From the NCBI GenBank assembly GCA_905233385.1, contig CAJOEH010000022.1, positions 846 to 64,845 of the forward strand: a stretch of 64,000 nucleotides of DNA. The letters are read 5' to 3'. The notes beneath the pieces were generated by a model, which was given only the letters and a program-made list of their open reading frames with translations, was not told the origin of the DNA and ran no database searches. Below are positions 2,965 to 59,266 of the stretch, piece after piece. Position 1 is the stretch's first letter. Each line of letters begins with the position of its first letter. The position numbers and the translations under genes were made by a program. The DNA comes from an uncultured Oscillospiraceae bacterium. GTDB taxonomy: Bacteria; Bacillota; Clostridia; Oscillospirales; Oscillospiraceae.

Positions 2965-4782
2965 TTACTGCTTGCTGATGGCCTTGAACTTACAGTTGCC
3001 CATGCAGACGCCGCACTTGACGCACTTGTCGGGGTCGATCTCGACGGAGGGCAACTTGTGGCCGGGGGCAACGTAGTCGGTCTTGCTGATGGCGGAGGCG
3101 GGGCAGTTGCGCATGCACAGGCCGCAGCCGATGCACTTTTCCTTATCCACGACGAACTTCAGCAGATCCTTGCAGACGCCGGCGGGGCAGCGCTTCTCGA
3201 CGACGTGCGCGATGTACTCGTCGCGGAAGTAGCGCAGCGTGGAGAGCACCGGATTCGGCGCGGTCTGGCCGAGGCCGCAGAGGGCGTTCGCCTTGATATA
3301 GTTGCACAGCTCTTCGAGCTTGTCGATGTCTTCGAGCGTGCCCTTGCCGGAGGTGATCTTCTCGAGGATCTCGAGCAGGCGCTTGGTGCCGACGCGGCAC
3401 GGCGTGCACTTGCCGCAGGACTCGTCCACCGTGAACTTCAGGAAGAACTTCGCGATGTCGACCATGCAGTTGTCCTCGTCCATGACGATCAGGCCGCCGG
3501 AGCCGACGATGGAGCCAATGGCCGCCATGCTCTCATAATCCAGCGGGGTGTCGATCAGGCTGGCCGGGATGCAGCCGCCGGACGGGCCGCCGGTCTGCGC
3601 CGCCTTGAACTTCTTGCCGTTGGGGATGCCGCCGCCGATCTCTTCGATGACCTGGCGCAGCGGAGTGCCCATCGGGATCTCGACGAGGCCGGTGTGCTTG
3701 ATCTTGCCGCCGAGCGCGAAGACTTTGGTGCCCTTGGACTTCTCGGTGCCCATGGAGGCGAACCACTCTGCGCCCTTGAGGATGATCTGGGGGATGTTCG
3801 CCCAGGTCTCGACGTTGTTCAGGATGGATGGCTTCTGGAACAGGCCCTTCTCCGCGGGGAACGGAGGACGGGGTCTCGGCTCGCCGCGGTTGCCCTCGAT
3901 GGAGGTCATCAGCGCGGTCTCTTCGCCGCAGACGAACGCGCCCGCGCCGAGGCGGAGGCCGATGTCGAACTTGAAGCCGGTGCCGAGGATATTATCGCCC
4001 AGCAGGCCGTATTCATGCGCCTGATCGATGGCGATCTGCAGACGCTTGACCGCGATCGGGTACTCCGCGCGGACGTAAATATAGCCCTGCGAGGAGCCGA
4101 TGGTGTAGCCGGCGATGGTCATAGCTTCCAGCACGGCGTGCGGGTCGCCTTCCAGAACGGAACGGTCCATGAATGCGCCGGGGTCGCCCTCGTCGGCGTT
4201 GCAGCAGACGTACTTCTGGTCGTTGTCATAGCCCTTGGCGAACTTCCACTTCAGGCCGGTCGGGAAGCCCGCGCCGCCGCGGCCTCGCAGACCGGAGTCC
4301 AGCAGGACCTGAATGACGTCGTCGGGGGTCATCTCGGTGAGCACCTTGCCCAGCGCCATATAGCCGTCGCGGGCGATATACTCGTCGATGTTCTCGGGGT
4401 TGATGACGCCGCAGTTGCGCAGCGCCACGCGGAGCTGGGACTTGTAGAAGTCGGTGTCGTTCAGGGAGACGTTCTCGCCGGGCTGCGTGACCTCCGCGCC
4501 TTCCTTGTATTCCAGGCGGGTGACGACGCGGCCCTTGAGCAGATGCTCCTCAACGATCTCGGGAACGTCCTCCGGCGTAACGTGGCTGTAGAACGTGCCC
4601 TCGGGGTAGACGATCATCACGGGGCCCAGAGCGCACAGGCCGAAGCAGCCGGTCTGCACGACCTTGATCTCTCCGGTCAGGCCCTTCGCCGCAAGTTCTT
4701 CCTCCAGCTTCGCCTTGACGTTCATGCTGCCGGAAGAGGTACAGCCGGTGCCTCCGCAGATCAGTACATGGGATCGAATCAT
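2965..4782 (-). CDS. hydB: Bifurcating hydrogenase NADH/FMN subunit (NuoF-like HydB/HndC)
   Basis: SGLRGRGGAGFPTG, NADEGDPG and GAGAFVCGEETAL motifs; N-terminal thioredoxin-like 2Fe-2S; C-terminal 2x4Fe-4S. Confidence 0.95.
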   Translation of the reverse strand: MIRSHVLICGGTGCTSSGSMNVKAKLEEELAAKGLTGEIKVVQTGCFGLCALGPVMIVYPEGTFYSHVTPEDVPEIVEEHLLKGRVVTRLEYKEGAEVTQPGENVSLNDTDFYKSQLRVALRNCGVINPENIDEYIARDGYMALGKVLTEMTPDDVIQVLLDSGLRGRGGAGFPTGLKWKFAKGYDNDQKYVCCNADEGDPGAFMDRSVLEGDPHAVLEAMTIAGYTIGSSQGYIYVRAEYPIAVKRLQIAIDQAHEYGLLGDNILGTGFKFDIGLRLGAGAFVCGEETALMTSIEGNRGEPRPRPPFPAEKGLFQKPSILNNVETWANIPQIILKGAEWFASMGTEKSKGTKVFALGGKIKHTGLVEIPMGTPLRQVIEEIGGGIPNGKKFKAAQTGGPSGGCIPASLIDTPLDYESMAAIGSIVGSGGLIVMDEDNCMVDIAKFFLKFTVDESCGKCTPCRVGTKRLLEILEKITSGKGTLEDIDKLEELCNYIKANALCGLGQTAPNPVLSTLRYFRDEYIAHVVEKRCPAGVCKDLLKFVVDKEKCIGCGLCMRNCPASAISKTDYVAPGHKLPSVEIDPDKCVKCGVCMGNCKFKAISKQ

Positions 4783-4794
4783 TTGCGTTCCTCC

Positions 4795-5169
4795 TTATGC
4801 GTTTTCGACTGCGCCGATCGTGTATTCCTCCACGACCTTGCCGCCCTGCAGATGTTCCTCGGCAATGCGGCGCGCCTTTTCGGCAGTCATTTTGACGTAG
4901 GTGACCTTTTCCTTGTCGGCCTCGTAGACCTCGATGATGGGCTCATACCGGCAGATGCCGATACAGCCGGTCTGGGTCACGGTGACCTTATCGGTGAGGC
5001 CGAGTCTGCTGACCTCCTCGACGAGCGCAGCGAGGACCGGTCTGGCGCCGGCGGCGATGCCGCAGGTTGCCATGCCGACCACGGCGCGGATGCTGCCGCT
5101 GCCGCTGCGCAGGTTAACGGTGTCCTTCATCCGGTCGCGGATGGCTTGAAGTTCCGCCAAAGTTTTCAT
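4795..5169 (-). CDS. hydD: Thioredoxin-like [2Fe-2S] subunit (HydD/HndB)
   Basis: VGMATCGIAAGA and QTGCIGICRYEP motifs. Confidence 0.9.
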   Translation of the reverse strand: MKTLAELQAIRDRMKDTVNLRSGSGSIRAVVGMATCGIAAGARPVLAALVEEVSRLGLTDKVTVTQTGCIGICRYEPIIEVYEADKEKVTYVKMTAEKARRIAEEHLQGGKVVEEYTIGAVENA

Positions 5170-5214
5170 AGTACGTTCCTTTCCTTGTTTATATCAAAAA
5201 TATTGCTTTCCGAT

Positions 5215-5745
5215 TTATGCGGGTGAAGTCAGGCTCTCGTACACCCAGGAGAGGACCTCCGGGGTATCGAGCGGGACGTCGCCCAGTATTTCACGCATCT
5301 GCGCGGTTTCCAGATTGATTTCATCGCCGCCCTCGCGGCGGTAGGTAAACGAAAAGTCGATCTCCGGACTGCCCTGAATCAGCGTGACCATCGTGCCGGC
5401 GTAATCGCCGACCGGGACGCAGTCCAGATGATCTATCGCGAAGGTCGCCGTGACCTCGGTGCCGTGGTCGTCGCCCTGCGAGGATTTTACCTTCAGCGTG
5501 CCGCCGGTCTGCTCCGCCGCGAGCTTCAGGAGCGGCAGCCCCATGCCGACCGGCCGCGTCGTGCGGCTCGTCGTGAAGGGATCGGTCACGGTCGCGACCA
5601 TCTCCGGCGGCATGCCGCAGCCGTCGTCGCGGATCGTGAGCCGCCGCCAGCCGTCTCGCTCGTCGATGACGATCTCGATCAGCGTCGCCTTGGCTTTCAC
5701 GGAGTTCTTTGCAATATCGAGGATGTTCAGAGACAGCTCTTTCAT
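5215..5745 (-). CDS. HATPase_c (histidine-kinase-like ATPase) protein
   Basis: LDIAKNS (N box), DDGCGM (G1 box) and GMGLPL (G2 box). Confidence 0.9.
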   Translation of the reverse strand: MKELSLNILDIAKNSVKAKATLIEIVIDERDGWRRLTIRDDGCGMPPEMVATVTDPFTTSRTTRPVGMGLPLLKLAAEQTGGTLKVKSSQGDDHGTEVTATFAIDHLDCVPVGDYAGTMVTLIQGSPEIDFSFTYRREGGDEINLETAQMREILGDVPLDTPEVLSWVYESLTSPA

Positions 5746-5769
5746 TGCGTCACCCCTCGTCGCTGCGTA

Positions 5770-5845
5770 TTGAGAATGGAGAATGGAGAATGAATCGGTG
5801 AACAGAGCGCTTCGCGCCCGATTCTCCGCTCTCCATTCTCAATTC
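5770..5845. repeat. Inverted heptamer (AATGNNN) repeat hairpin
   Basis: GAATGGA-GAATGGA-GAATGAA followed by complementary ATTCTCC/ATTCTCA units around a GCGCTTCGCGC mini-hairpin. Confidence 0.65.
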
Positions 5846-6576
5846 ATACCGCGCCGCAGCAGCTTGATCAGCGCGTCCCGGACCCGCTGCGAGCTGTAGG
5901 GCTCGTCGTCTAAGTCCAGATACGGTCCGGCGTCGCGCATACTCTCTAAACGGTGCGCGTCGGACGAGCAGAGCAGTCTGCGTCCCTGCAGACCGTACTT
6001 TTCGCGGTAGCGTTCCAGGTTTTCCCGGTCGTTGAGCTCCAGCGTCGGGAAATACGGGGTTTCGGGCAGGTCGCCCAGAATGCCGAGGATGCCGTTGGCA
6101 GGGCGGTCGATGTGCGCGGGATAGGCAGCGCCGCCGTGGGAAAGCGCGAGCGCCGTCCCTTCCTCGAGCGAAAGCTGCGTCGCCGGGATCAGCAGATCCG
6201 GCTCCTCGCCGAGCACGTTGTCCTCCGCGTCCACGTAAACCTGGCTGCCGAAGACCGCGGGCTTGTTTTTGATCGGCAGACGCGCTTTGCGCACGTCGCG
6301 GTCAAAGGCCTCGGCGGCCTCCAGGGTCGGGAACAGACACACGAGGTGGATCTCCTCCGCCGTGGTCAGCTCCATCCCCGGCACGCCCACGATGCCGTAA
6401 TTCCGGCATGCCGTGAGAAACGCGCCGCAGTTGCCGCAGGTGTTGTGGTCGGTCAGCGCTAAAAGCTGCAAGCCGCACAGGGACGCCATGCCCGCGATGT
6501 TCGCCGGCGTCATGTCGTCGTCGGCGCAGGGCGAGAGGCAGGAGTGCAGATGCAGGTCGTAGAAGTAGCGGCTCAT
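5839..6576 (-). CDS. PHP-domain phosphoesterase
   Basis: DLHLHS, ALTDHN, AHIDR and SSDAH motifs; start MSRYFY at 6576 overlaps the upstream stop. Confidence 0.9.
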   Translation of the reverse strand: MSRYFYDLHLHSCLSPCADDDMTPANIAGMASLCGLQLLALTDHNTCGNCGAFLTACRNYGIVGVPGMELTTAEEIHLVCLFPTLEAAEAFDRDVRKARLPIKNKPAVFGSQVYVDAEDNVLGEEPDLLIPATQLSLEEGTALALSHGGAAYPAHIDRPANGILGILGDLPETPYFPTLELNDRENLERYREKYGLQGRRLLCSSDAHRLESMRDAGPYLDLDDEPYSSQRVRDALIKLLRRGMN

Positions 6577-50169: not shown

Positions 50170-50919
50170 TCAGCCGTTGTAATTGACGACCTTCTCGAAT
50201 TTCTCCGCGACCAGGCTCGCGCCGCCGATCAGACCGCCGTCGATCTCCGGCTGGCTCATCAGCTCGCCCGCGTTCTTGTCGTTCATGCTGCCGCCGTAGA
50301 GGATGCGCACGTTCTCGGCGACGTAGCCAAACACGTCCCTGATCGCGCCGCGGATGGCGGCGATCGTGCGGTTGGCGTCGGCCGCCGTCGCGGTCATGCC
50401 CGTGCCGATCGCCCAGACGGGCTCATAGGCGATGACGCAGTCGGTGATCTGAGCAGAGGAAACGCCGCACAGGGCCGCCTTGGTCTGGAGGCAGACGACC
50501 TCGTTCGTGATGCCGGTCTGCTTCTGCTCCAGGCTCTCGCCGACGCAGATGATCGGCTTCAGGCCGTTTTCCAGCGCCTTCAGCACCTTCTTGTTGACGG
50601 TCTCGTCTGTCTCCGCGAAATACTGGCGGCGCTCGGAGTGGCCGAGAATGACGTACTCCACGCCCAGCTCCTTCAGGCTCGCGCAGTTCGCTTCGCCGGT
50701 GAACGCGCCCTTATCCGCGAAGTGGACGTTCTGCGCGCCGAGGTGCAGGTCCGTGCCCTTGATCTGGGCGGAGGCGGCGAACAGACTGACCGTCATCGGG
50801 CAAACGACGATCTCCACGTTCGTCTTCGGCTGAATCTTTTTGAGCTCCTGGATCAGCGCGACGGTCTCCGCGGGCGTCTCGTTCATCTTCCAGTTGCCCG
50901 CGATCATGGGTCTTCTCAT
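50170..50919 (-). CDS. tpiA: Triosephosphate isomerase
   Basis: AGNWKMN, GHSERR, AYEPVWAIGTG and GGASL motifs. Confidence 0.96.
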   Translation of the reverse strand: MRRPMIAGNWKMNETPAETVALIQELKKIQPKTNVEIVVCPMTVSLFAASAQIKGTDLHLGAQNVHFADKGAFTGEANCASLKELGVEYVILGHSERRQYFAETDETVNKKVLKALENGLKPIICVGESLEQKQTGITNEVVCLQTKAALCGVSSAQITDCVIAYEPVWAIGTGMTATAADANRTIAAIRGAIRDVFGYVAENVRILYGGSMNDKNAGELMSQPEIDGGLIGGASLVAEKFEKVVNYNG

Positions 50920-50934: not shown

Positions 50935-51765
50935 TCAATACAGCTTCGGACGGATATCCACGTTGCCCGACGGGCAGGTCTTGCAGTTGCCGCAGTTGAC
51001 GCACTTGTGCTCGTCCTCGGTGACGCCGGAGACGATCTTGCCGGTGGAGCTTGCGCCGATGCGGTTCGCGCCGGCGTTGATCATGTTGACCGCGTCGGTG
51101 TAGGTACGCACGCCGCCGGAGGCCTTGACGCCGATGTCGGGGCCGACCGTCTCACGCATCAGGCGGACGTCTTCGACCGTCGCGCCGCCGGTGGAGAAGC
51201 CGGTGGAGGTCTTGACGAAGTGCGCGCCTGCCAGCTTGGAGACGGTGCACGCCTTGACCTTCTCTTCGTCGGTCAGCAGGCAGCATTCGATGATGACCTT
51301 GACCAGCGCGCGGCCGCGGACGGCGTTGACGACGCCCTCGATATCGCGCTTGACGAGCTGCCAGTCGCCGGACTTGACGGCGCCGATGTTGATGACCATG
51401 TCGATTTCGCGTGCGCCCTTGGTCGCCGCGTCGGAGGCCTCAAACGCCTTCGTTTCGGGCGTGCATGCGCCGAGCGGGAACGCGATGACGCAGCACGGCG
51501 TCACGCCGCTGCCCTCGAGCTGCTGCGCCACGTACTGGATATAGGACGGGTTGACGCAGACGCTGGCGGTGTGATACTTCTTCGCCTCGTCGCAGATCTT
51601 GCGGATGTCCGTGATGCTGGCTTCCGGCTTCAAAAACGTATGGTCGATGTATTTTGCCATGTCGGCAGGGCTTTTGCCGGCCGGCGCCGCGGCTCCGGGA
51701 GCGGCTGCGCCGTACTTGGAGCAGATCTCCTCCGTCACCTGGCGGATGATTTCATTGATATCCAT
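50935..51765 (-). CDS. deoC: Deoxyribose-phosphate aldolase with N-terminal encapsulation peptide and C-terminal Cys4 tail
   Basis: IDHT, EIDMVIN, FVKTSTG, GVKASGG and RIGASS; N-term [14 protein letters not shown]; C-term [11 protein letters not shown]. Confidence 0.93.
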
Positions 51766-51788: not shown

Positions 51789-52541
51789 TTACTTTCTTGC
51801 TTCTTCCGCGATCTTCGCGGTCGCGGTCAGTCCGAGGCGGACCGCGCCGGCCGCAAGCAGTTCCTCCGCCTGCGCCAGCGTCTTGATGCCGCCGTCGATC
51901 TTGATGCCGACGTTCCTTCCGAGGATATCGTAGGCAAACCGGACGTCCTCCACGCGCGCGCCGTGTCCGCTGAGCATGTTCTGGATCTTGACGAAGTCCA
52001 CGCCGCTGCTGCGCAGCATGGTCAGAACCGCCTGCTTCTCCTCGAACGTGTAGAGGGAATGCTCAAAGACCGCCTTGATCTTTGCTTTGCCGCAGGTAAA
52101 GCGCACCAGCTCCTCCAGCTCCCGCTGCGCCTCGTCCAGACGGCCGGACTTAATCGCGAGCGCATTGATCGCGACGTCGATCTCGGTCGCGCCGTTCGCC
52201 ATGCACTCGCGCAGCTCGGCGAGCTTCGCCGCCTGCGACATGCAGCCGTGCGGGAAGCCGATCGCGGTGCCGACCGCGACGGGACTGCCGAGCAGGGCGT
52301 CGCGCGCCGCCGCGACGTAGTAAGGCGCAACGCAGACCGCCGCGACGGAGTACTTGCGCGCCACGGCGCACTCCGCTTTGATCTTGTCCAGCGTCGTGTC
52401 GGGATTGAGCAGAGAATGCTCCAGATGAGCGACCACGTCCGCGCCGGTCACGATCCCCGCGAGGGGCGCCGGATTCGCGTCTGCGTGGAAGTACGCCAGC
52501 ACCTGACGCTCTACTTCTTTTCTGATTGCTTCTACATCCAT
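51789..52541 (-). CDS. Divergent DeoC-like class I aldolase with encapsulation peptide
   Basis: LEHS, EIDVAIN, FVKIQNM and GIKIDGG; N-term [18 protein letters not shown]. Confidence 0.85.
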
Positions 52542-52829
52542 TTAGTGATACTCCCTGACCTCGCCGTCGAACGTAAGGTGGTCGATGACGCCGCAGATCG
52601 TGATGTCGCCGATGCAGTGACGGCCGAGCAGAATGCTTGCCGCGCCGCCGTCGCAGGCGACGACCACGGTATCTCCGATACCGGCGTCCGCCACGTCGAA
52701 GGCGATCGCCTCTTCTCCGGTCAGATTGCCCGCTTCATCGAGGTAGTCGATGATCATGAGCTTCTGCCCGTCGAATCCGGCGTCCTTGATCGTGGAAACG
52801 ACGTTTCCGACGACTCTTGCCAGCTTCAT
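52542..52829 (-). CDS. BMC-P pentamer (EutN/CcmL family)
   Basis: [18 protein letters not shown] and GVID motifs. Confidence 0.92.
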
Positions 52830-53101
52830 CCCATTCTCGGGAGAATGCCCTCGACGTCATCGTGCGGGGACGGGATCACGTGGCAGCCGTACAGCTCGCC
52901 GACGCGCTTTGCAGCCGTCGCGCCCGCGTCGACCGCGGCCTTGACCGCGCCGACGTCGCCGCGTACCATGACGGTGACGAGGCCGCTGCCGATCTGCTCT
53001 TTGCCGATCAGATGAACGTCTGCTGCCTTGACCATGGCGTCTGCCGCTTCAATGGAGCCGATCAGACCGCGGGTCTCGACCATTCCGAGTGCTAGTTTCA
53101 T
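52826..53101 (-). CDS. BMC-H hexamer shell protein
   Basis: [34 protein letters not shown] and VIPSPH motifs. Confidence 0.95.
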
Positions 53102-53116
53102 AATAATACCTCCAAA

Positions 53117-53398
53117 TTATTGATTTTCCGGTTGTATTTCTACGTTGTAGGAGTCGATAAAGCCGACGATGGCCGCATCGGCGGGGACCAGCTTCCTGCG
53201 GAAGATCCTCCCTGCCTCTCTGGAGCCGATCATGTAGACAATATCGCCCTTGCCTGCCTGTCGGGTGGAATCCGCCGCTACGATCATTTTTGTTTTTTTG
53301 CCTTTTTCGATCTTATGCACCACGAGGAGCGGAATATCTTCCATGCCCGGCTCCTTCACGGTGGCAACGACCGTTCCGACGACCTCCCCGATATACAT
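53117..53398 (-). CDS. BMC-P pentamer (EutN/CcmL family)
   Basis: [17 protein letters not shown] and AAIVGFID motifs. Confidence 0.9.
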
Positions 53399-53402
53399 GG
53401 GA

Positions 53403-53664
53403 TCAGCCGATCGTGGGCAGGATGCCCTCGACGTCGTCGTGCGGGGACGGGATCACGTGGCAGCCGTACAGCTCGCCGACGCGCTTCGCAGCCGTCGCGG
53501 ACGGTGACGAGGCCGCTGCCGATCTGGGTCTTGCCGATGAGATGAACGTTTGCCGCCTTGACCATGGCGTCGGCCGCCTCAATGGCGCCGATGAGGCCGC
53601 GGGTTTCCACCATACCGAGTGCTAATTTCATTTTCGTTGTCTCCTTCTTTTTTGTTGTTGCCAT
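53403..53664 (-). pseudogene. BMC-H copy with a 47-bp frameshifting deletion
   Basis: Matches its paralogs except that codons for [16 protein letters not shown] (47 nt) are missing at about 53500. Confidence 0.8.
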
Positions 53665-53676
53665 AGCGTTTACCTT

Positions 53677-53952
53677 TTAGCCCATCGTCGGCAGGATGCC
53701 TTCGACGTCGTCGTGCGGGGACGGGATCACGTGGCAGCCGTACAGCTCGCCGACGCGCTTCGCAGCCGTCGCGCCCGCGTCGACCGCAGCCTTGACCGCG
53801 CCGACGTCGCCGCGCACCATGACGGTGACGAGGCCGCTGCCGATCTGGGTCTTGCCGATGAGGCGGACGTTTGCTGCCTTGACCATCGCATCGGCCGCTT
53901 CGATCGCGCCGATGAGGCCGCGGGTTTCAACCATTCCTAATGCTTCTTTCAT
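53677..53952 (-). CDS. BMC-H hexamer shell protein
   Basis: Same BMC-H motifs; near-identical DNA to the other two copies. Confidence 0.95.
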
Positions 53953-54019
53953 GTTTTGTTATCCTCCGTTAAAAATTTATAATAATTTTTCAAAAGCAAC
54001 GAGTGAATTGCGCGCGGGC

Positions 54020-55426
54020 TCAGATGATGCGGAAGTCGCCCTTCAGCACGCAGCGTCTTGCGCGGGTAAAGGACTTCGCGCTGGTCAGGCCCTCGCCGGT
54101 CGGGGTGGCGATCGTCAGGGTGGTGTAGCCCTCACCGCCGAAGCCGAGGCCGGAGTAGGAAGGCGCGTTCTTGACGAAGATCGTCGTATTCATACGCTTC
54201 GCCGCGCGGGACATATTGTGGATGTTGGTCGAATGGATCAGCGCGGAGTGCTGGCAGCCGTGCTCGGCGCGGAACGCCTCCGAAAGCGCCTCGTCGAAGT
54301 TCGCCACGCGGACGCAGCCGAGGACCGGCATCAGCATCTCGACCTCGACGAAGGGATGGAAGCGGTCGACCTCCGCGATGACCAAGACGGGCTCGCCGGT
54401 GAAGGACACGCCGCTCTCGCGCAGGATGTAGGTCGCGTCGTGACCGACGAACTTGCGGTTGATGACGTACTTGCCGTCCTTCTGGATCAGCACGGTGCGA
54501 ACGATCTTGTCGATGTCCTCGCCGTAGACGCGGAAGGCGCCGTTGCGCTGCATCTGGCTCATGAGCTCGTCCGCGATGGAGGCGACCATGAAGCACTCCT
54601 TCTCCGCGACGCAGAGGATGTTGTTCTCAAAGCTCGCGCCGTCGACGATCTTCTTCGCGGCGTCCGGGATGTTCGCCGTCTCGTCGACGATGACCGGCGG
54701 ATTGCCGGGGCCTGCCGCGACGCACTTCTTGCCGGACTTCATCGCCACCGCGACGACCGCTTCGCCGCCGGTGACCGCCAGCATCTTGATCGCCTTGTGG
54801 CTCATCAGGACCGCCGAGGTCTCCATCGTCGGCTCCTTCGGCGCGGTGATCAGGCCGTTCGGGCCGCCCGCGTCGACGATCGCCTGGTTGAGAAGCTCCA
54901 TCGCCCGCTGCGAGGCGCGCTTCGCCGCAGGATGGGGGTTGTAGACCACGGCATTGCCCGCCGCGATCATGCTGATGGAGTTGTTGATGACCGTCGCGGT
55001 CGGGTTGGTCGACGGGGTGATCGAGCCGATGACGCCGTAGGGCGCCGTCTCGACGAGGGTCAGGCCGTCGTCGCCGCTGTAGGCGGTCGGGTGCAGGTCT
55101 TCCACACCGGGGGTCTTGTTCGCGGCGAGCAGGTTCTTCGCGATCTTGTGCTGGACCTTGCCGTAGCCGGTCTCGTCGTGCGCCAGGATCGCAAGCTCCT
55201 CGGCGTGCGCCCTTGCGCAGACGCGCATCGCATCGATCAGCTTGCCGCGGTCTTCCAGCGTCATTTCCGCCAGACGCTGCTGGGCGCGGATCGCGGTCTC
55301 GATCGCATCGTTGATGTCGTCAAACAGGCACTGCGCCGCGCCGCCGGCAGAACCGCCGCCGCCGCGCTCTAAACTGTTTTTGGTCTCTTCCGCGATTTTC
55401 CGTATCTGTTCTTTTGTCAACGCCAT
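54020..55426 (-). CDS. Acylating aldehyde dehydrogenase (EutE/PduP-like) with encapsulation peptide
   Basis: PSTNPT, TGGEAVV, NNILCVAEKE (catalytic Cys) and GGEGYTT motifs; N-terminal amphipathic helix plus Gly linker. Confidence 0.95.
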   Translation of the reverse strand: MALTKEQIRKIAEETKNSLERGGGGSAGGAAQCLFDDINDAIETAIRAQQRLAEMTLEDRGKLIDAMRVCARAHAEELAILAHDETGYGKVQHKIAKNLLAANKTPGVEDLHPTAYSGDDGLTLVETAPYGVIGSITPSTNPTATVINNSISMIAAGNAVVYNPHPAAKRASQRAMELLNQAIVDAGGPNGLITAPKEPTMETSAVLMSHKAIKMLAVTGGEAVVAVAMKSGKKCVAAGPGNPPVIVDETANIPDAAKKIVDGASFENNILCVAEKECFMVASIADELMSQMQRNGAFRVYGEDIDKIVRTVLIQKDGKYVINRKFVGHDATYILRESGVSFTGEPVLVIAEVDRFHPFVEVEMLMPVLGCVRVANFDEALSEAFRAEHGCQHSALIHSTNIHNMSRAAKRMNTTIFVKNAPSYSGLGFGGEGYTTLTIATPTGEGLTSAKSFTRARRCVLKGDFRII

Positions 55427-55435
55427 ACGCTATCC

Positions 55436-55741
55436 TCAACTTTCTTTGTTGAATTTTTCAAAGATCCTCTTGCCGTTCACGTCGACGTGGTCGATGATGG
55501 CAATGATGGTCTGATCGACGGGCTTGTTCTCCGTGACGATCGTCTGACGGGACGAGCTGCCGCTGACGGTCATAACGACCTCGCCCTCGCCTGCGCCGAC
55601 GGCGTCGATAGCGACGACCGGCGCGCCCTTCTCCTGCCAGGTCTCAATGTCGATGGGCTTGACGATCAGCAGCTTCAGGCCGTAGAGCTTCTCCGCCTTG
55701 TTGGTGCTGACGACCGTTCCTTTTACGATGCCTAAATTCAT
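55436..55741 (-). CDS. BMC-P pentamer (EutN/CcmL family)
   Basis: GIVKGTVVST, AIDAVGAGEGE, SGSSSR and AIID motifs. Confidence 0.94.
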   Translation of the reverse strand: MNLGIVKGTVVSTNKAEKLYGLKLLIVKPIDIETWQEKGAPVVAIDAVGAGEGEVVMTVSGSSSRQTIVTENKPVDQTIIAIIDHVDVNGKRIFEKFNKES

Positions 55742-56430
55742 ACCGTTTCTCCTTCATACTGCACCGCGACGTCGGACGCGCGCAGGGCGTCGCGCGCCGC
55801 CGGTGTAATGATCGCGCCCACGCGGGCGGTGATGGTCCTGTCCTTCGTCTGCGCCGCGGCGAGGACGTCCGCTTCGGTGATCAGCGTCGCGCCGATCCGG
55901 GCGGCGGCGTCGCCGGTAAAGTACGGGCAGACGGCGACGTTCATCTGGCGCAGGGTGTCGATTGAAGAGGCGACGCCCTCCAGGAACGTGTTGCGCTTGA
56001 ATTTCGGCGGCTCAAAGTCGAGATACAGCCGCACATCCTTCCGCCACAGCACGCTGCGGACGATCAGGTAGGAAAGGAAGTCGCTGTCCTCTCCCCGCGC
56101 GATCTGCCCCAGAAGCTCCAGCCGCGGCCCGACTAAAACGACCGTTTTCGCCGCGGTAATCTTCGCGAGCAGTTCCGGCTGTCCGAGATGATCCGCAAAG
56201 AGCAACCCCTCGTCCTGCACGCCGGGCTGCTGCACGAAGCTGAGGAAGGTGTAACCCTCGCCGAACTGCGTTTGGAGCAGTTCCCTCAGCTCCTTCGGGT
56301 AGGCGACCGGCGCAGCCAGCAGCACGAGCACCTGCTCGGGATGCTGCGCCTCGCGCTCGAGCCGCGCGATCCGGCGCACGACCTCCGCGACGATCAGATC
56401 TATTAATTTGTGTAAAAGCTCTGTATCCAT
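55738..56430 (-). CDS. PduM/flavoprotein-like BMC accessory protein
   Basis: N-terminal encapsulation peptide LIDLIVAEVVRRI; C-terminal LITEADV...IITPAARD motif. Confidence 0.65.
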   Translation of the reverse strand: MDTELLHKLIDLIVAEVVRRIARLEREAQHPEQVLVLLAAPVAYPKELRELLQTQFGEGYTFLSFVQQPGVQDEGLLFADHLGQPELLAKITAAKTVVLVGPRLELLGQIARGEDSDFLSYLIVRSVLWRKDVRLYLDFEPPKFKRNTFLEGVASSIDTLRQMNVAVCPYFTGDAAARIGATLITEADVLAAAQTKDRTITARVGAIITPAARDALRASDVAVQYEGETV

Positions 56431-56454
56431 CTCTTACACAACCTTAACTCGATG

Positions 56455-57093
56455 TTATTTCAATACTTCCATCATTGTGCTGCCGCTCATGGCGACGGCA
56501 TTCGCCTCGTCGGTGTCGACGTGGACCTCCATATCGTGCCCGTCGCCCGCGCGGACGATGACGTTTTCAAAGACCACCGCGCGGTCGCCCTCGCTCCTGA
56601 GGCGGACGGTCTGACCGTCGCGCAGGCCGAACAGCGCCGCCTGCGCCGCGGACAGATGCAGATGCCGCGCCGCCACGATCACGCCCTCGGGAATGTCGAT
56701 CTGCCCCATCGGGCCGATGAGACTGCATCCCGGCGTACCGGCGGTCTTGCCGGACATGCGGACCGGCGGGCGGATGCCCAGCGAGAACGAGTCGGTGAAG
56801 GCGATCTCCACCTGTGTCGCCTTGCGCTCCGGTCCGAGGACGCGGACGCGCTCCAACTTCCCCTTCGGACCGACGACCGTCACCTGCTCCACGCATGCGA
56901 ACTGTCCCGGCTGAGAAAGGTCGCGGAATTTCTGTAACTGATAGCCCGCGCCGAACAGCCGCTCCACGTCCGCGCGGGACAGATGCACGTGCCGCGCCGA
57001 CGCCGCCACGGGAACGAAGATCCGTCCCGTTTCGCGGAAGATCCGCTCGGCGACCGCAAGCTGCACCGGCCGCTGAATGCTCGCTTTATCCAT
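56455..57093 (-). CDS. pduL: PduL-type phosphotransacylase
   Basis: SARHVHLS, LSQPGQFA, RVLGPER, VIVAARHLH and HVDTDEANA motifs. Confidence 0.95.
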   Translation of the reverse strand: MDKASIQRPVQLAVAERIFRETGRIFVPVAASARHVHLSRADVERLFGAGYQLQKFRDLSQPGQFACVEQVTVVGPKGKLERVRVLGPERKATQVEIAFTDSFSLGIRPPVRMSGKTAGTPGCSLIGPMGQIDIPEGVIVAARHLHLSAAQAALFGLRDGQTVRLRSEGDRAVVFENVIVRAGDGHDMEVHVDTDEANAVAMSGSTMMEVLK

Positions 57094-58282
57094 TCGCGTT
57101 CACCTTTTTCATGACGATGCCTTCAAAATAGGTCTTCGCCAAAATCGTTTTCACGTCGTCCACCGTCGGACGGACAATATTCGTCAGCGTCGCCGTATCG
57201 GCGAGGGCGTGCTCCGCCAGCACGTCGATATCGTCCATGCTGAACTTCGTCTCGCACAGCGGCGGGATCTTCACGTCCGCGCAGAGCTTCCGCACCGCCT
57301 CGATCGCGAGCCGGGAAGCGGCGTCGACGGAGAGGCTGTCGATCTTCTCTCCCATCGCCTGCGCGACGTCCGCGAGCCGTCCCATGCAGTAGGGGCGGTT
57401 GTACTCCAGCACGCGCGGCAGCATGATCGCGTTGGCAAGGCCGTGCGGGATATTGTAGAAGCCGCCGAGCTGGTGGGCGATGCCGTGCACCAGGCCCAGG
57501 CCGGCGTTCGAGAACGACAGGCCCGCCATGTATTCCGCCCAGCACATATCCGTACGGGCGTCCATATTCGACCCGTCGCGCACCGCGGCGCGCAGCGACT
57601 TGCTCACAAGGCGGATCGACTCCAGCGCAAGCGCGTCCGTATAGGGCGTGGGAACACTGCAGATGTACGCTTCGATCGCATGCGTCAGCGCGTCGATGCC
57701 CGTCGCCGCCGTCAGGGAGGGCGGCATGCCGACCATCAGCATCGGGTCGTCCAGCGCCAGATACGTCAGGCAGTTCGGGTCAACCATCAGCATCTTGGAT
57801 TTCGCCTTTTCATCCGTGACGACGTATGCCGCCGTGCATTCCGAGCCGGTGCCCGCCGTCGTGTTGACCGCGATGATCGGCGAGCCGGGCTTTTTGGATT
57901 TGTTCACGCCGTTGTAGTCTTCGATCTTGCCGCCGTTCGCCGACAGGATGCTGACCGCCTTCGCCACGTCGATCGACGAGCCGCCGCCGATGGCGATCAA
58001 CGCGCCGCAGCCGTTCTTCGTAAAGAACTCCAGCGCCTGATAGACGATCCGCGTCGTCGGATTCGGCTCCACGCCGTCAAACACCGCGTAGTTGATCCCC
58101 GCCTGGTCGAGCACGGCGATGACCTTGCCGGCGGTGCCGATCTTGACCAGGCCCTTGTCGGTGATCACGAGGACCTTTTGTGCGTTCAGATCGCGCAGAA
58201 AACGCGGGATCTGCAGGATGCCGTCGCGCCCGATCAGGGTGTGCCGCGGCTGATAAAGTTCTACCGTTTCGATCTGTTCCAT
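57086..58282 (-). CDS. Iron-containing alcohol dehydrogenase
   Basis: GGGSSIDVAK, TTAGTGSE, DALTHAIE, HGIAH and HGLAN motifs; start 58282 after GGAGAG. Confidence 0.94.
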   Translation of the reverse strand: MEQIETVELYQPRHTLIGRDGILQIPRFLRDLNAQKVLVITDKGLVKIGTAGKVIAVLDQAGINYAVFDGVEPNPTTRIVYQALEFFTKNGCGALIAIGGGSSIDVAKAVSILSANGGKIEDYNGVNKSKKPGSPIIAVNTTAGTGSECTAAYVVTDEKAKSKMLMVDPNCLTYLALDDPMLMVGMPPSLTAATGIDALTHAIEAYICSVPTPYTDALALESIRLVSKSLRAAVRDGSNMDARTDMCWAEYMAGLSFSNAGLGLVHGIAHQLGGFYNIPHGLANAIMLPRVLEYNRPYCMGRLADVAQAMGEKIDSLSVDAASRLAIEAVRKLCADVKIPPLCETKFSMDDIDVLAEHALADTATLTNIVRPTVDDVKTILAKTYFEGIVMKKVNANG

Positions 58283-58300
58283 CGTTTCGCTCTCCATTGT

Positions 58301-58324
58301 AAAACGCTCAAAATCGCTCATTTT
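58301..58324 (-). promoter_or_regulatory. Tandem 10-bp direct-repeat operator upstream of the BMC genes
   Basis: Minus strand AAAATGAGCG-ATTTTGAGCG; the same motif occurs upstream of deoR. Confidence 0.7.
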
Positions 58325-58480
58325 GCCGAGCCTTTCCGTGTGGTATCATCTTCCCACAATTTCCATGCAATGTCAACAGCGCATTTCGCGGTTTTTATCA
58401 TTTTGTGAGTTCTGACAGTTTGATCGTCCGCGCTTTGTATATTTTGATCAGGAAAAAAGCGGCGGCAGGCGCAGACCGAA

Positions 58481-59266
58481 TCATTCAAGCGGGAGCAGCG
58501 TGCAGGGAATGCCCTGTTTTGCATAGAAATTCACAAATTCCTGCGGCATGTTCTGCGTGGAGATGACGCGGCACGCCTTCTCCGGCGGGAACATCGTCGC
58601 GAACGCGCGGCGGCCGAACTTCGCGCTGTCCAGCAGCATGTACATCCGGCGCGTCATGCGCGAAAGCTGGGTGTAAAGCGCCGTGCGGTTCTTGTCCTGC
58701 ACGGTGTAGCCGCGCTCCAGATCCACGCCCTCGACCGTCAGGAAGACCTTGTCGAAGAAATAACCGCGCAGGGTGTGGTTGACGTCCGGGTCGAGCGTCT
58801 CGATATAGTTCTTGCCGGTGCGGACGTCGCCGCCGAGGAGGGTCACGGAGACGTTCGGGCACTCCGCCAGCTCCAGGACCGCCGTCACGGAGGTCGTTAC
58901 CACGGTCAGCCGCTCGACGTCGCGCAGCTGCGCCGCGAAAATGTTGCAGGTTTTGCCCGCGCCGATGAAGATGGATTCGCCGGAGCGCACCTGCGCCGCC
59001 GCTTCCTTCGCGATCAGCAGCTTTTCCTTGTCGATCTCGTCGCCGATCTCGGTGCCGTTGACGTAGCGGCTGTGATCCGGGCGTTTTTCCGGCAGCTTCA
59101 GGCCGCCGTGCGTGCGCTCCGCCAGCCCCTTGCCCTGGATCTCGTCAAAATCGCGGCGCGTCGTGGCGACGGAGGCGCCGGTCAGTTCGCAGATCTCCTG
59201 CATGGAGATCGCGCCGCGCTCGTGCAGCAGGTCCAAAATCTTCTTTTCACGTTCCCAGTACTTCAT
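58481..59266 (-). CDS. DeoR/GlpR-family regulator
   Basis: HTH SVATTRRDF..ERTHGG; IFIGAGKT; VTTSV; LLDSAKFG. Confidence 0.94.
   Translation of the reverse strand: MKYWEREKKILDLLHERGAISMQEICELTGASVATTRRDFDEIQGKGLAERTHGGLKLPEKRPDHSRYVNGTEIGDEIDKEKLLIAKEAAAQVRSGESIFIGAGKTCNIFAAQLRDVERLTVVTTSVTAVLELAECPNVSVTLLGGDVRTGKNYIETLDPDVNHTLRGYFFDKVFLTVEGVDLERGYTVQDKNRTALYTQLSRMTRRMYMLLDSAKFGRRAFATMFPPEKACRVISTQNMPQEFVNFYAKQGIPCTLLPLE

Follow-up and report, generated by a model that had tools for sequence, protein, structure and literature searches.

Introduction

Deoxyribose-phosphate aldolase (DERA; gene deoC) is the textbook cofactor-free class I aldolase. In the ferredoxin fold, cysteines I–III of a unit ligate one iron–sulfur (Fe-S) cluster and the cysteine of the Cys-Pro (CP) pair ligates the neighboring cluster, and short synthetic ferredoxin peptides wrap one cluster in a non-canonical manner. 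Here, we describe a DERA that carries a four-cysteine, ferredoxin-like element in its C-terminal tail. It is encoded on the minus strand of a 64,000-nucleotide stretch (hereafter, the window) of contig CAJOEH010000022.1 from an uncultured Oscillospiraceae bacterium. The genome is 1.88 Mb in size, 95% complete, and approximately 60% GC, and its relatives are named Faecousia/Oscillospiraceae.

In the well-studied DERA of Escherichia coli, Lys167 forms the Schiff base, and Asp102 and Lys201 constitute the Asp/Lys proton relay (PMC8403123). The C-terminal tail of this enzyme is disordered and adopts an open or a closed state; in the closed state, Tyr259 enters the active site and joins catalysis (Schulte et al. 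2018, as cited in PMC8403123). DERAs also occur in bacterial microcompartments (BMCs) of the sugar-phosphate-utilizing (SPU) type, a locus type listed in the catalogue PMC8217296, and encapsulation peptides (EPs) have been described on these SPU enzymes (PMC11585597). In BMCs, the NADH dehydrogenase MNdh (PduS-like) and the shell protein BMC-T^SE (PduT-like) are an established electron-export pair (PMC11626177).

Results

The deoC gene of the window (positions 50935..51765, minus strand), identified from the list of open reading frames, TIGR00126, Pfam DeoC, and alignment to the Protein Data Bank (PDB), encodes 276 amino acids followed by a stop codon. After the TIM barrel, the translation and the codon alignment contain the motif Cys255-x2-Cys258-x2-Cys261-x2-Cys264-Pro265 (CxxCxxCxxCP; residues 255–265; 50971..51003, minus strand). 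The first-pass annotation, made from the DNA letters, had given this tail string and its coordinates exactly, and had rightly counted the motif as one residue short of the CxxCxxCxxxCP of ferredoxins. This canonical spacing is not found in the window protein, whereas most orthologues have it. The Fer4 matches and a tail profile compared with the PDB delimit a putative half-ferredoxin (single Fer4-type) unit at residues 250–271 (50953..51018, minus strand). The unit is inserted between the TIM barrel and the C-terminal residue, Tyr276 (50938..50940, minus strand; TGA stop at 50935–50937), and is not appended at the end of the protein.

The Fer4 models (PF00037/PF13237) were applied with their gathering scores, and Pfam matches were also inspected to E ≤ 10. 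The orthologue P0001 matched Pfam Fer4 with 24.6 bits, above the gathering cut-off, and the tail of Faecousia intestinalis alone matched Fer4 with 25.1 bits and Fer4_10 with 28.3 bits, both above the cut-offs. When all PDB sequences were searched with a profile built from 21 tails, the matches were solely [4Fe-4S] ferredoxin units, namely, those of the polyferredoxins FwdF and MvhB, 1clf, 1fca, 1fdn, NuoI/TYKY, and PsaC. The alignments extended beyond the cysteines to the flanks D-E-x-K-C and CP-x-G-x-[VI]-E-I. The tail of approximately 30 residues matches one half of a 55-residue clostridial ferredoxin in both length and pattern. A second Fer4 unit was not found in the chain, and the main group of tails contains no further tail-specific cysteine.

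Four closely spaced cysteines are also able to bind zinc, and a structural zinc (or other non-Fe-S) knuckle or a disulfide redox switch would stiffen the tail without Fe-S chemistry. The variable spacer between the third and fourth cysteines (3, 2, or 1 residues) would fit a plastic zinc site more easily, and a His two residues before Cys1 is invariant in the main group. However, this His is not conserved in the second tail group described below, and the non-ligand residues (CxxCGxC, CP, xG, and the hydrophobic-E-I strand) are of the Fer4 type and not of the zinc-ribbon type. No zinc-binding family was found among the Pfam matches even at E ≤ 10; the four cysteines are contiguous at two-residue spacing, with no two-knuckle loop. 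Gut and rumen Oscillospiraceae are generally taken to be strict anaerobes, in which the use of Fe-S clusters is the norm. We consider a zinc or disulfide tail unlikely. The first-pass annotation had proposed a Zn or Fe-S module: a conserved, selected module of Fer4 character, as judged by Pfam and the PDB profile, was found, while the zinc half of the proposal matched no family.

The tail is widely conserved among close relatives. In total, some 50 orthologues from gut and rumen Faecousia/Oscillospiraceae genomes and metagenomes bear it, most of them with the canonical spacing and with scores over the Pfam Fer4 thresholds. It was found in more than 120 protein clusters, and nearly all of the 120 closest clusters (at least 84% identity) end with DEHKC[VI]NCGNCKNxCP[SAT]GNVEIRKxLY, i.e., with the canonical CxxCxxCxxxCP. 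A scan of one genome per species detected the full tail in 37 species, all gut or rumen Oscillospiraceae/Faecousia and including the isolate F. intestinalis CLA-AA-H192, which has the canonical form; 11 metagenome loci also encode the tail. In 301 genomes of the same family, a DeoC match was present in 259 and the tail in 8, and in each of these eight genomes the tail is accompanied by the N-terminal helix and by a second DeoC-like match. None of the best 150 of 12,576 DERA matches (representatives of 50%-identity clusters) has a CxxCxxC tail, and protein searches restricted to the tail region with the two tail types returned 18 and 13 proteins, which were close relatives only. The tail was thus found solely in EP-bearing DeoC of BMC loci, the restriction that the first-pass annotation had raised.

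Comparison of 41 distinct tail DNAs revealed no amino-acid change at the His, the four Cys, Gly, Pro, Gly, Ile, or the terminal Tyr. Synonymous codons are used at these invariant sites (CAC/CAT 29:12, TGC/TGT, CCG/CCC 28:13, and ATC/ATT). Since the residues are invariant while the codons vary synonymously, the tail is under purifying selection, and a chance origin of the tail is excluded. The first-pass annotation had made its proposal depend on conserved cysteines, and all four proved invariant in these DNAs.

Protein and metagenome searches revealed a second, divergent tail group with the pattern C.xCGACKxxCPTG[AN]C.I.K..Y, often with a fifth cysteine. Members of this group (L009, L128–L134, and P0277–P0289) keep the four cysteines, the Pro, the terminal Tyr, and the CxxCxxCxxxCP spacing. 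They have an EP, and their genes are ordered AldDH-PduS-PduT-H-P-H-P-DeoCL-DeoC, where AldDH is aldehyde dehydrogenase. The fifth cysteine (CPTG[AN]C) is confined to this group and is usual there.

Three further observations concern the variation of the tail. P0287, a member of the second group, has Gly in place of the CP cysteine and retains the fifth cysteine. The tail-less DeoC of the BMC locus L018 / L038 (G224:C6), which belongs to the same family, ends with ...STGCPGKGKCGSY, with two cysteines, one of them before Pro, and a terminal Tyr; this end may represent what is left of the module or a forerunner of it. In the genus g97, the DeoC of L009, which bears both an EP and the tail, is closest to the tail-less, EP-less DeoC of the sister species (L012, L015), with a Shimodaira–Hasegawa-like approximate likelihood-ratio test (SH-aLRT) value of 98. 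This pattern suggests a recent gain, loss, or recombination of both extensions.

The protein that carries the tail is, by all sequence comparisons, a genuine DERA, although cleavage of deoxyribose 5-phosphate itself is predicted. The 276-residue protein scored 283.7 bits with TIGR00126 (EC 4.1.2.4, equivalog; cut-off 117.3) and 58.7 bits with Pfam DeoC (cut-off 23.8). Its identity to solved DERAs in the PDB is 55–60% over residues 35–251, and these alignments end at approximately residues 249–252. The TIM-barrel aldolase domain (residues 35–249; 51019..51663, minus strand), as delimited by the alignment, AlphaFold2 (AF2), and the PDB DERAs, was modeled by AF2 with a predicted local distance difference test (pLDDT) score of >90. 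The barrel contains Asp122 (EIDMVIN), Lys185 (FVKTSTG), and Lys214 (GVKASGG), which are invariant columns in a 64-sequence alignment (A1). On the basis of their motifs, we take them to correspond to Asp102, Lys167, and Lys201 of the E. coli enzyme.

The translation, AF2, and the orthologues place an N-terminal EP helix at residues 1–19 (51709..51765, minus strand), followed in the translation and AF2 by an Ala/Pro/Gly linker (~51664–51708, minus strand). AF2 predicted the helix at residues 3–18 and a linker at residues 20–29 with a pLDDT of <50; in this model, a helix and a disordered linker before the barrel are the usual layout of an EP. All tail-bearing orthologues share this helix, which is missing from the housekeeping DeoC of the same family.

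All complete tail-bearing sequences that were retrieved end with Tyr, as do 88 of the 150 diverse DERA representatives. We read Tyr276 as the counterpart of the catalytic Tyr259 of E. coli DERA. Since all tails keep this residue, which is catalytic in the E. coli enzyme, the module appears to sit within the element that delivers a catalytic residue. That the insertion precedes the conserved terminal Tyr had been overlooked in the first-pass annotation.

Codon-level alignment showed that the two-residue spacer between Cys3 and Cys4 of the window protein is a single-codon deletion. The same one-codon gap occurs in the non-identical sequences L081, L078, and L079/L003, and is accompanied by a change from IRK.LY to IRPKLY. 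An assembly error was rejected as the origin of the short spacer because the identical gap is present in several non-identical genomes. In a quick maximum-likelihood tree, the short-spacer sequences form one subclade nested in the canonical clade (SH-aLRT 84). The tail has undergone six synonymous changes and four conservative replacements after the deletion, and all four cysteines, the His, Gly, Pro, and Tyr are intact. As judged from the alignment and the tree, the codon deletion is real, inherited, tolerated, and derived. Because all ligands stayed invariant after the deletion, the window variant with its two-residue spacer probably still binds a cluster. One metagenome protein has a single spacer residue (CKCP).

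The aldolase gene is the penultimate gene of a minus-strand operon with the transcription order DeoR, iron-containing alcohol dehydrogenase (Fe-ADH), PduL/phosphotransacylase (PTAC), PduM-like, BMC-P, AldDH, BMC-H, truncated BMC-H, BMC-P, BMC-H, BMC-P, DeoC-like, DeoC, and triosephosphate isomerase (TPI). The genes from DeoR to the last BMC-P (52542..59266, minus strand) were assigned with Pfam and NCBIfam. The DeoC-like paralogue, which has its own EP (51789..52541, minus strand; Pfam and TIGR00126), lies directly upstream of deoC. The TPI gene (50170..50919, minus strand; Pfam TIM, 6.5e-91) begins 15 bp past the deoC stop and is the last gene of the operon. BMC-H, a BMC-P triplet, AldDH, and a pfam01791 aldolase, by which SPU loci are recognized, are all present. 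Together with PTAC, alcohol dehydrogenase, and TPI, which have been reported for SPU4 (PMC11585597), the gene content fits an SPU-type, SPU4-like microcompartment. An RpiB-type ribose-5-phosphate isomerase (RPI; pfam02502/PF02502) was not matched in a search confined to the genes of the operon; RPI is missing from 11 of 29 SPU4 loci (PMC11585597). A BMC-T^s shell protein was not found in the window, while relatives have a PduT-like tandem-BMC protein.

According to blastn, the window is colinear with the related locus L032 except for L032 positions 4568–6410. At the corresponding junction in the window (54009..54019, unstranded), same-genus relatives carry 1.84 kb that encodes MNdh and BMC-T^SE. 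The pair lies between AldDH and BMC-H in these relatives and consists of a PduS-like MNdh of 437 amino acids, with Complex1_51K, SLBB, Fer4_17, and RnfC_N domains, and a PduT-like BMC-T^SE of 181 amino acids, which is a tandem BMC protein. Exactly this 1.84-kb segment is missing from the window and from L081, and no orthologue of either protein was found in the genome to which the window belongs (G000). Since the window is without the segment and has no BMC-T, NAD+ recycling must rely on Fe-ADH.

The distribution of this pair bears on the electron relay within the BMC that the first-pass annotation had suggested. In such a relay, electrons would pass between the tail cluster and both MNdh, the NADH dehydrogenase of the lumen, and BMC-T^SE, the Fe-S trimer of the shell, and the aldolase would belong to the export path. 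MNdh and BMC-T^SE are encoded between AldDH and BMC-H in 22 of the 23 tail-bearing genome loci that reach AldDH, the metagenome tail loci likewise encode both, and the motif is of the electron-transfer ferredoxin type. The MNdh/BMC-T^SE pathway itself is established (PMC11626177). However, the window and L081 lack both genes by a clean 1.84-kb difference. Genome G277, which is complete, keeps the canonical tail with no PduS orthologue genome-wide, genome G210 combines PduS with a short tail, and L078 has the short spacer and retains MNdh/BMC-T^SE. A coupling of the tail to the pair was rejected because all four combinations of tail form and MNdh occur (four same-genus genomes, 23 loci), which indicates that the tail is independent of the pair. 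In addition, in a coarse sample of other BMC loci, the presence of Cys modules did not follow that of PduS/PduT, aldol cleavage is redox-neutral, and MNdh docks directly onto BMC-T^SE (PMC11626177). The persistence of the tail where the pair is lost argues against an obligatory electron relay, and we regard participation of the tail in the export path as distinctly unlikely. The relay of the first-pass annotation is thus unlikely to be essential, as species that have lost MNdh/BMC-T^SE still retain the tail. A structural or regulatory role of the tail is more likely than that of an electron wire.

In the middle BMC-H gene (53356–53664, minus strand), the match to the BMC domain (75 positions) covers only positions 1–41, and 43 bp of the gene are shared with the following BMC-P gene. 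A full-length BMC-H occupies this place in relatives. The truncated copy reflects either the decay of a paralogue or the misassembly of a near-repeat.

The codon deletion, the loss of MNdh/BMC-T^SE, and the truncated BMC-H might together mark a degenerating organelle, in which the tail of the subclade binds nothing. Scores of the window tail under the Fer4 cut-offs, the loss of two genes, a middle BMC-H confined to the first 41 positions of its domain, and a metagenome relative with the still shorter CKCP spacer are in line with such decay. However, the four Cys, His, Gly, Pro, and Tyr are intact in at least four non-identical sequences, with changes in the tail that are synonymous or conservative. 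Moreover, L078 has the short spacer yet keeps MNdh/BMC-T^SE, and the rest of the operon is intact. We therefore judge this explanation very unlikely.

In the lineages sampled, a DeoC-like gene immediately precedes each tail-bearing DeoC for which the upstream DNA is visible, and no such gene is found in two tail-less BMC DeoC loci, L038 and L196. This association, and the absence of a terminal Tyr from DeoC-like proteins, would be expected if, within a heteromer, a tail longer by 20 residues brings the terminal Tyr or the Cys unit to the DeoC-like paralogue. However, the co-occurrence comes from related lineages and may reflect shared ancestry only, and the heteromer would be a speculative assembly. 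A complementary Cys motif in the partner was rejected, as a Cys survey of the window DeoC-like protein and its orthologues found no extra conserved cysteine, no Cys tail, and no terminal Tyr. The partner thus offers no extra conserved cysteine for a shared cluster, and the oligomerization with the DeoC-like partner envisaged by the first-pass annotation found no sequence support. A tail acting in trans on the paralogue seems a very remote prospect.

Four-cysteine (Cys4) modules also occur at the opposite end of other SPU aldolases. Of 87 DERA representatives whose N-terminal extension spans 60 residues or more, 43 have at least four cysteines within 30 residues just before the barrel, and the recurrent patterns are Cx6-7CxxCxxC and CxxCx5Cx3C. 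The carriers (P0124, P0126, P0133, P0137, P0143, P0146, and 37 others) are long-extension SPU-type DERAs from other lineages, with the motif approximately 35–65 residues before the barrel. In 112 fetched loci, a Cys4 module was present in 0 of 85 unextended and 9 of 27 extended DeoC proteins; this coarse survey is indicative only, as it used the window proteins as probes, first-Met starts, and 6–7 kb flanks. Cys4 modules thus seem to recur as accessories of encapsulated aldolases, whether before or after the barrel. Because of this recurrence at either end, an organelle-related role (assembly, docking, or redox sensing) is favored over aldol chemistry.

Discussion

We tentatively favor the explanation that an encapsulated DERA gained, in its tail, one Fer4-type repeat that binds a structural or regulatory Fe-S cluster, and we give this explanation as a whole slightly less than an even chance. 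That the canonical orthologues have some Fe-S site is itself rather probable, and a site in the short-spacer variant of the window is somewhat less likely than in those orthologues. According to the favored explanation, a single ferredoxin-type repeat, which equals one half of a clostridial 2[4Fe-4S] ferredoxin, was gained by the lineage between the barrel and the terminal Tyr. The unit would bind an Fe-S cluster, most likely [4Fe-4S], which would be wrapped by the four cysteines of one tail or shared by two tails of an aldolase dimer. The shared arrangement is plausible because the CP cysteine of a canonical ferredoxin ligates the neighboring cluster; DERA is dimeric in E. coli (PMC8403123) and in the SPU6 enzyme (PMC11585597). 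The cluster would fold the otherwise disordered 30-residue tail, fixing the reach of the terminal Tyr and/or tying aldolase subunits together in the cargo core, and the production of acetaldehyde would then depend on anoxic, Fe-S-replete conditions. Metal identity, stoichiometry, and functional consequence are the parts of this explanation that we infer.

A more elaborate arrangement can also be envisaged, in which two aldolase tails, from one dimer or from neighboring dimers, build a complete inter-chain 2×[4Fe-4S] module like that of a ferredoxin. Insertion of the clusters would cross-link, activate, or condense the signature enzyme in the microcompartment, and the N- and C-terminal Cys4 modules would be a general device of SPU aldolases that couples assembly or activity to redox conditions. 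We consider this improbable.

Several results weigh against a single Fer4-type unit that binds a cluster in the catalytic tail. The window tail scored below all Fer4 cut-offs, with 16.8–21.2 bits for Fer4_10 (cut-off 25.5) and 14.3 bits for Fer4 (cut-off 21.1). In the canonical ferredoxin geometry, a single Fer4 unit on its own is unable to complete a cluster. The spacer between Cys3 and Cys4 is 3, 2, or 1 residues long, a variation that the rigid ferredoxin fold should not tolerate, and the second tail group does not conserve the His that is invariant in the main one. AF2 monomers of the window protein and of the canonical F. intestinalis orthologue alike showed no fold in the tail, with a pLDDT of 36–54; an unfolded tail in a modeled apo-monomer is compatible with cofactor- or partner-dependent folding, and neither supports nor excludes it. 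Since other SPU DERAs carry Cys4 modules at the N-terminus, a role tied to the catalytic tail would not be general, and many BMC DERAs are without any Cys module. Finally, the metal on the tail is a prediction from sequence.

If the favored explanation is true, a redox-, oxygen-, or iron-dependent layer acts on the activity or packing of the cargo in gut and rumen anaerobes, and the tail is a rare natural single ferredoxin half-repeat. The SPU organelle is among the most widespread microcompartment types and has barely been studied experimentally. Natural variants ease testing, as spacers of 3 and 2 residues, loci with and without MNdh/BMC-T^SE, and the cultured F. intestinalis CLA-AA-H192 are available. 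For enzyme engineering, the tail marks a natural route for rebuilding the catalytic tail of DERA.

Comparison with known systems

A metal or Fe-S module on DERA was not found in PMC11585597, PMC8217296, or the other literature searched. A Fer4-type tail on DERA is thus undescribed in this literature, whereas the Fer4 repeat and the SPU DERA are already known kinds. The SPU6 DERA of Chloroflexi (PMC11585597; catalogue PMC8217296) resembles the window protein as a class I DERA with an N-terminal amphipathic EP. SPU DERAs are likewise encoded with AldDH, PTAC, a BMC-P triplet, BMC-H, and TPI, and serve as the signature enzyme that makes acetaldehyde inside the shell. In contrast, PMC11585597 describes N-terminal extensions only and never mentions iron-sulfur, Fe-S, or ferredoxin, whereas the window protein has a C-terminal Fer4-type unit. 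In place of RPI, the locus has a second aldolase, the DeoC-like one, and neither MNdh nor any BMC-T is encoded in the window.

The E. coli DERA, as far as Schulte et al. 2018 is represented in PMC8403123, shares the fold, the Asp/Lys/Lys set matched by motif, and a flexible tail that ends with Tyr. Its metal-free tail is formed by the last eight residues, the only ones missing from the crystal structure, while the tail described here has approximately 30 residues and places a Cys4-Pro unit before the last 10 or so.

MNdh (PduS-like) and BMC-T^SE (PduT-like) (PMC11626177) also place [4Fe-4S] centers in or at the wall of the same kind of organelle, and in most relatives the genes for both lie in this operon; the cluster of the aldolase is predicted. 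They are dedicated redox proteins with a demonstrated electron path, whereas no redox task is known for the aldolase tail, which is kept even where the pair is missing.

The clostridial 2[4Fe-4S] ferredoxins and polyferredoxins (PF00037/PF13237; 1clf, 1fdn, 5t5i chain F, and 9sw6 chain G) differ in that the aldolase has one unit, and thus no two-cluster domain per chain, in that the window has a spacer of 2 before CP, and in that the host enzyme is non-redox. They share with the tail the consensus D-x-x-K-C-[IV]-x-C-G-x-C-x3-C-P-x-G-x-[IV]-x-[IV], and the length of the tail equals one half of the 55-residue ferredoxin.

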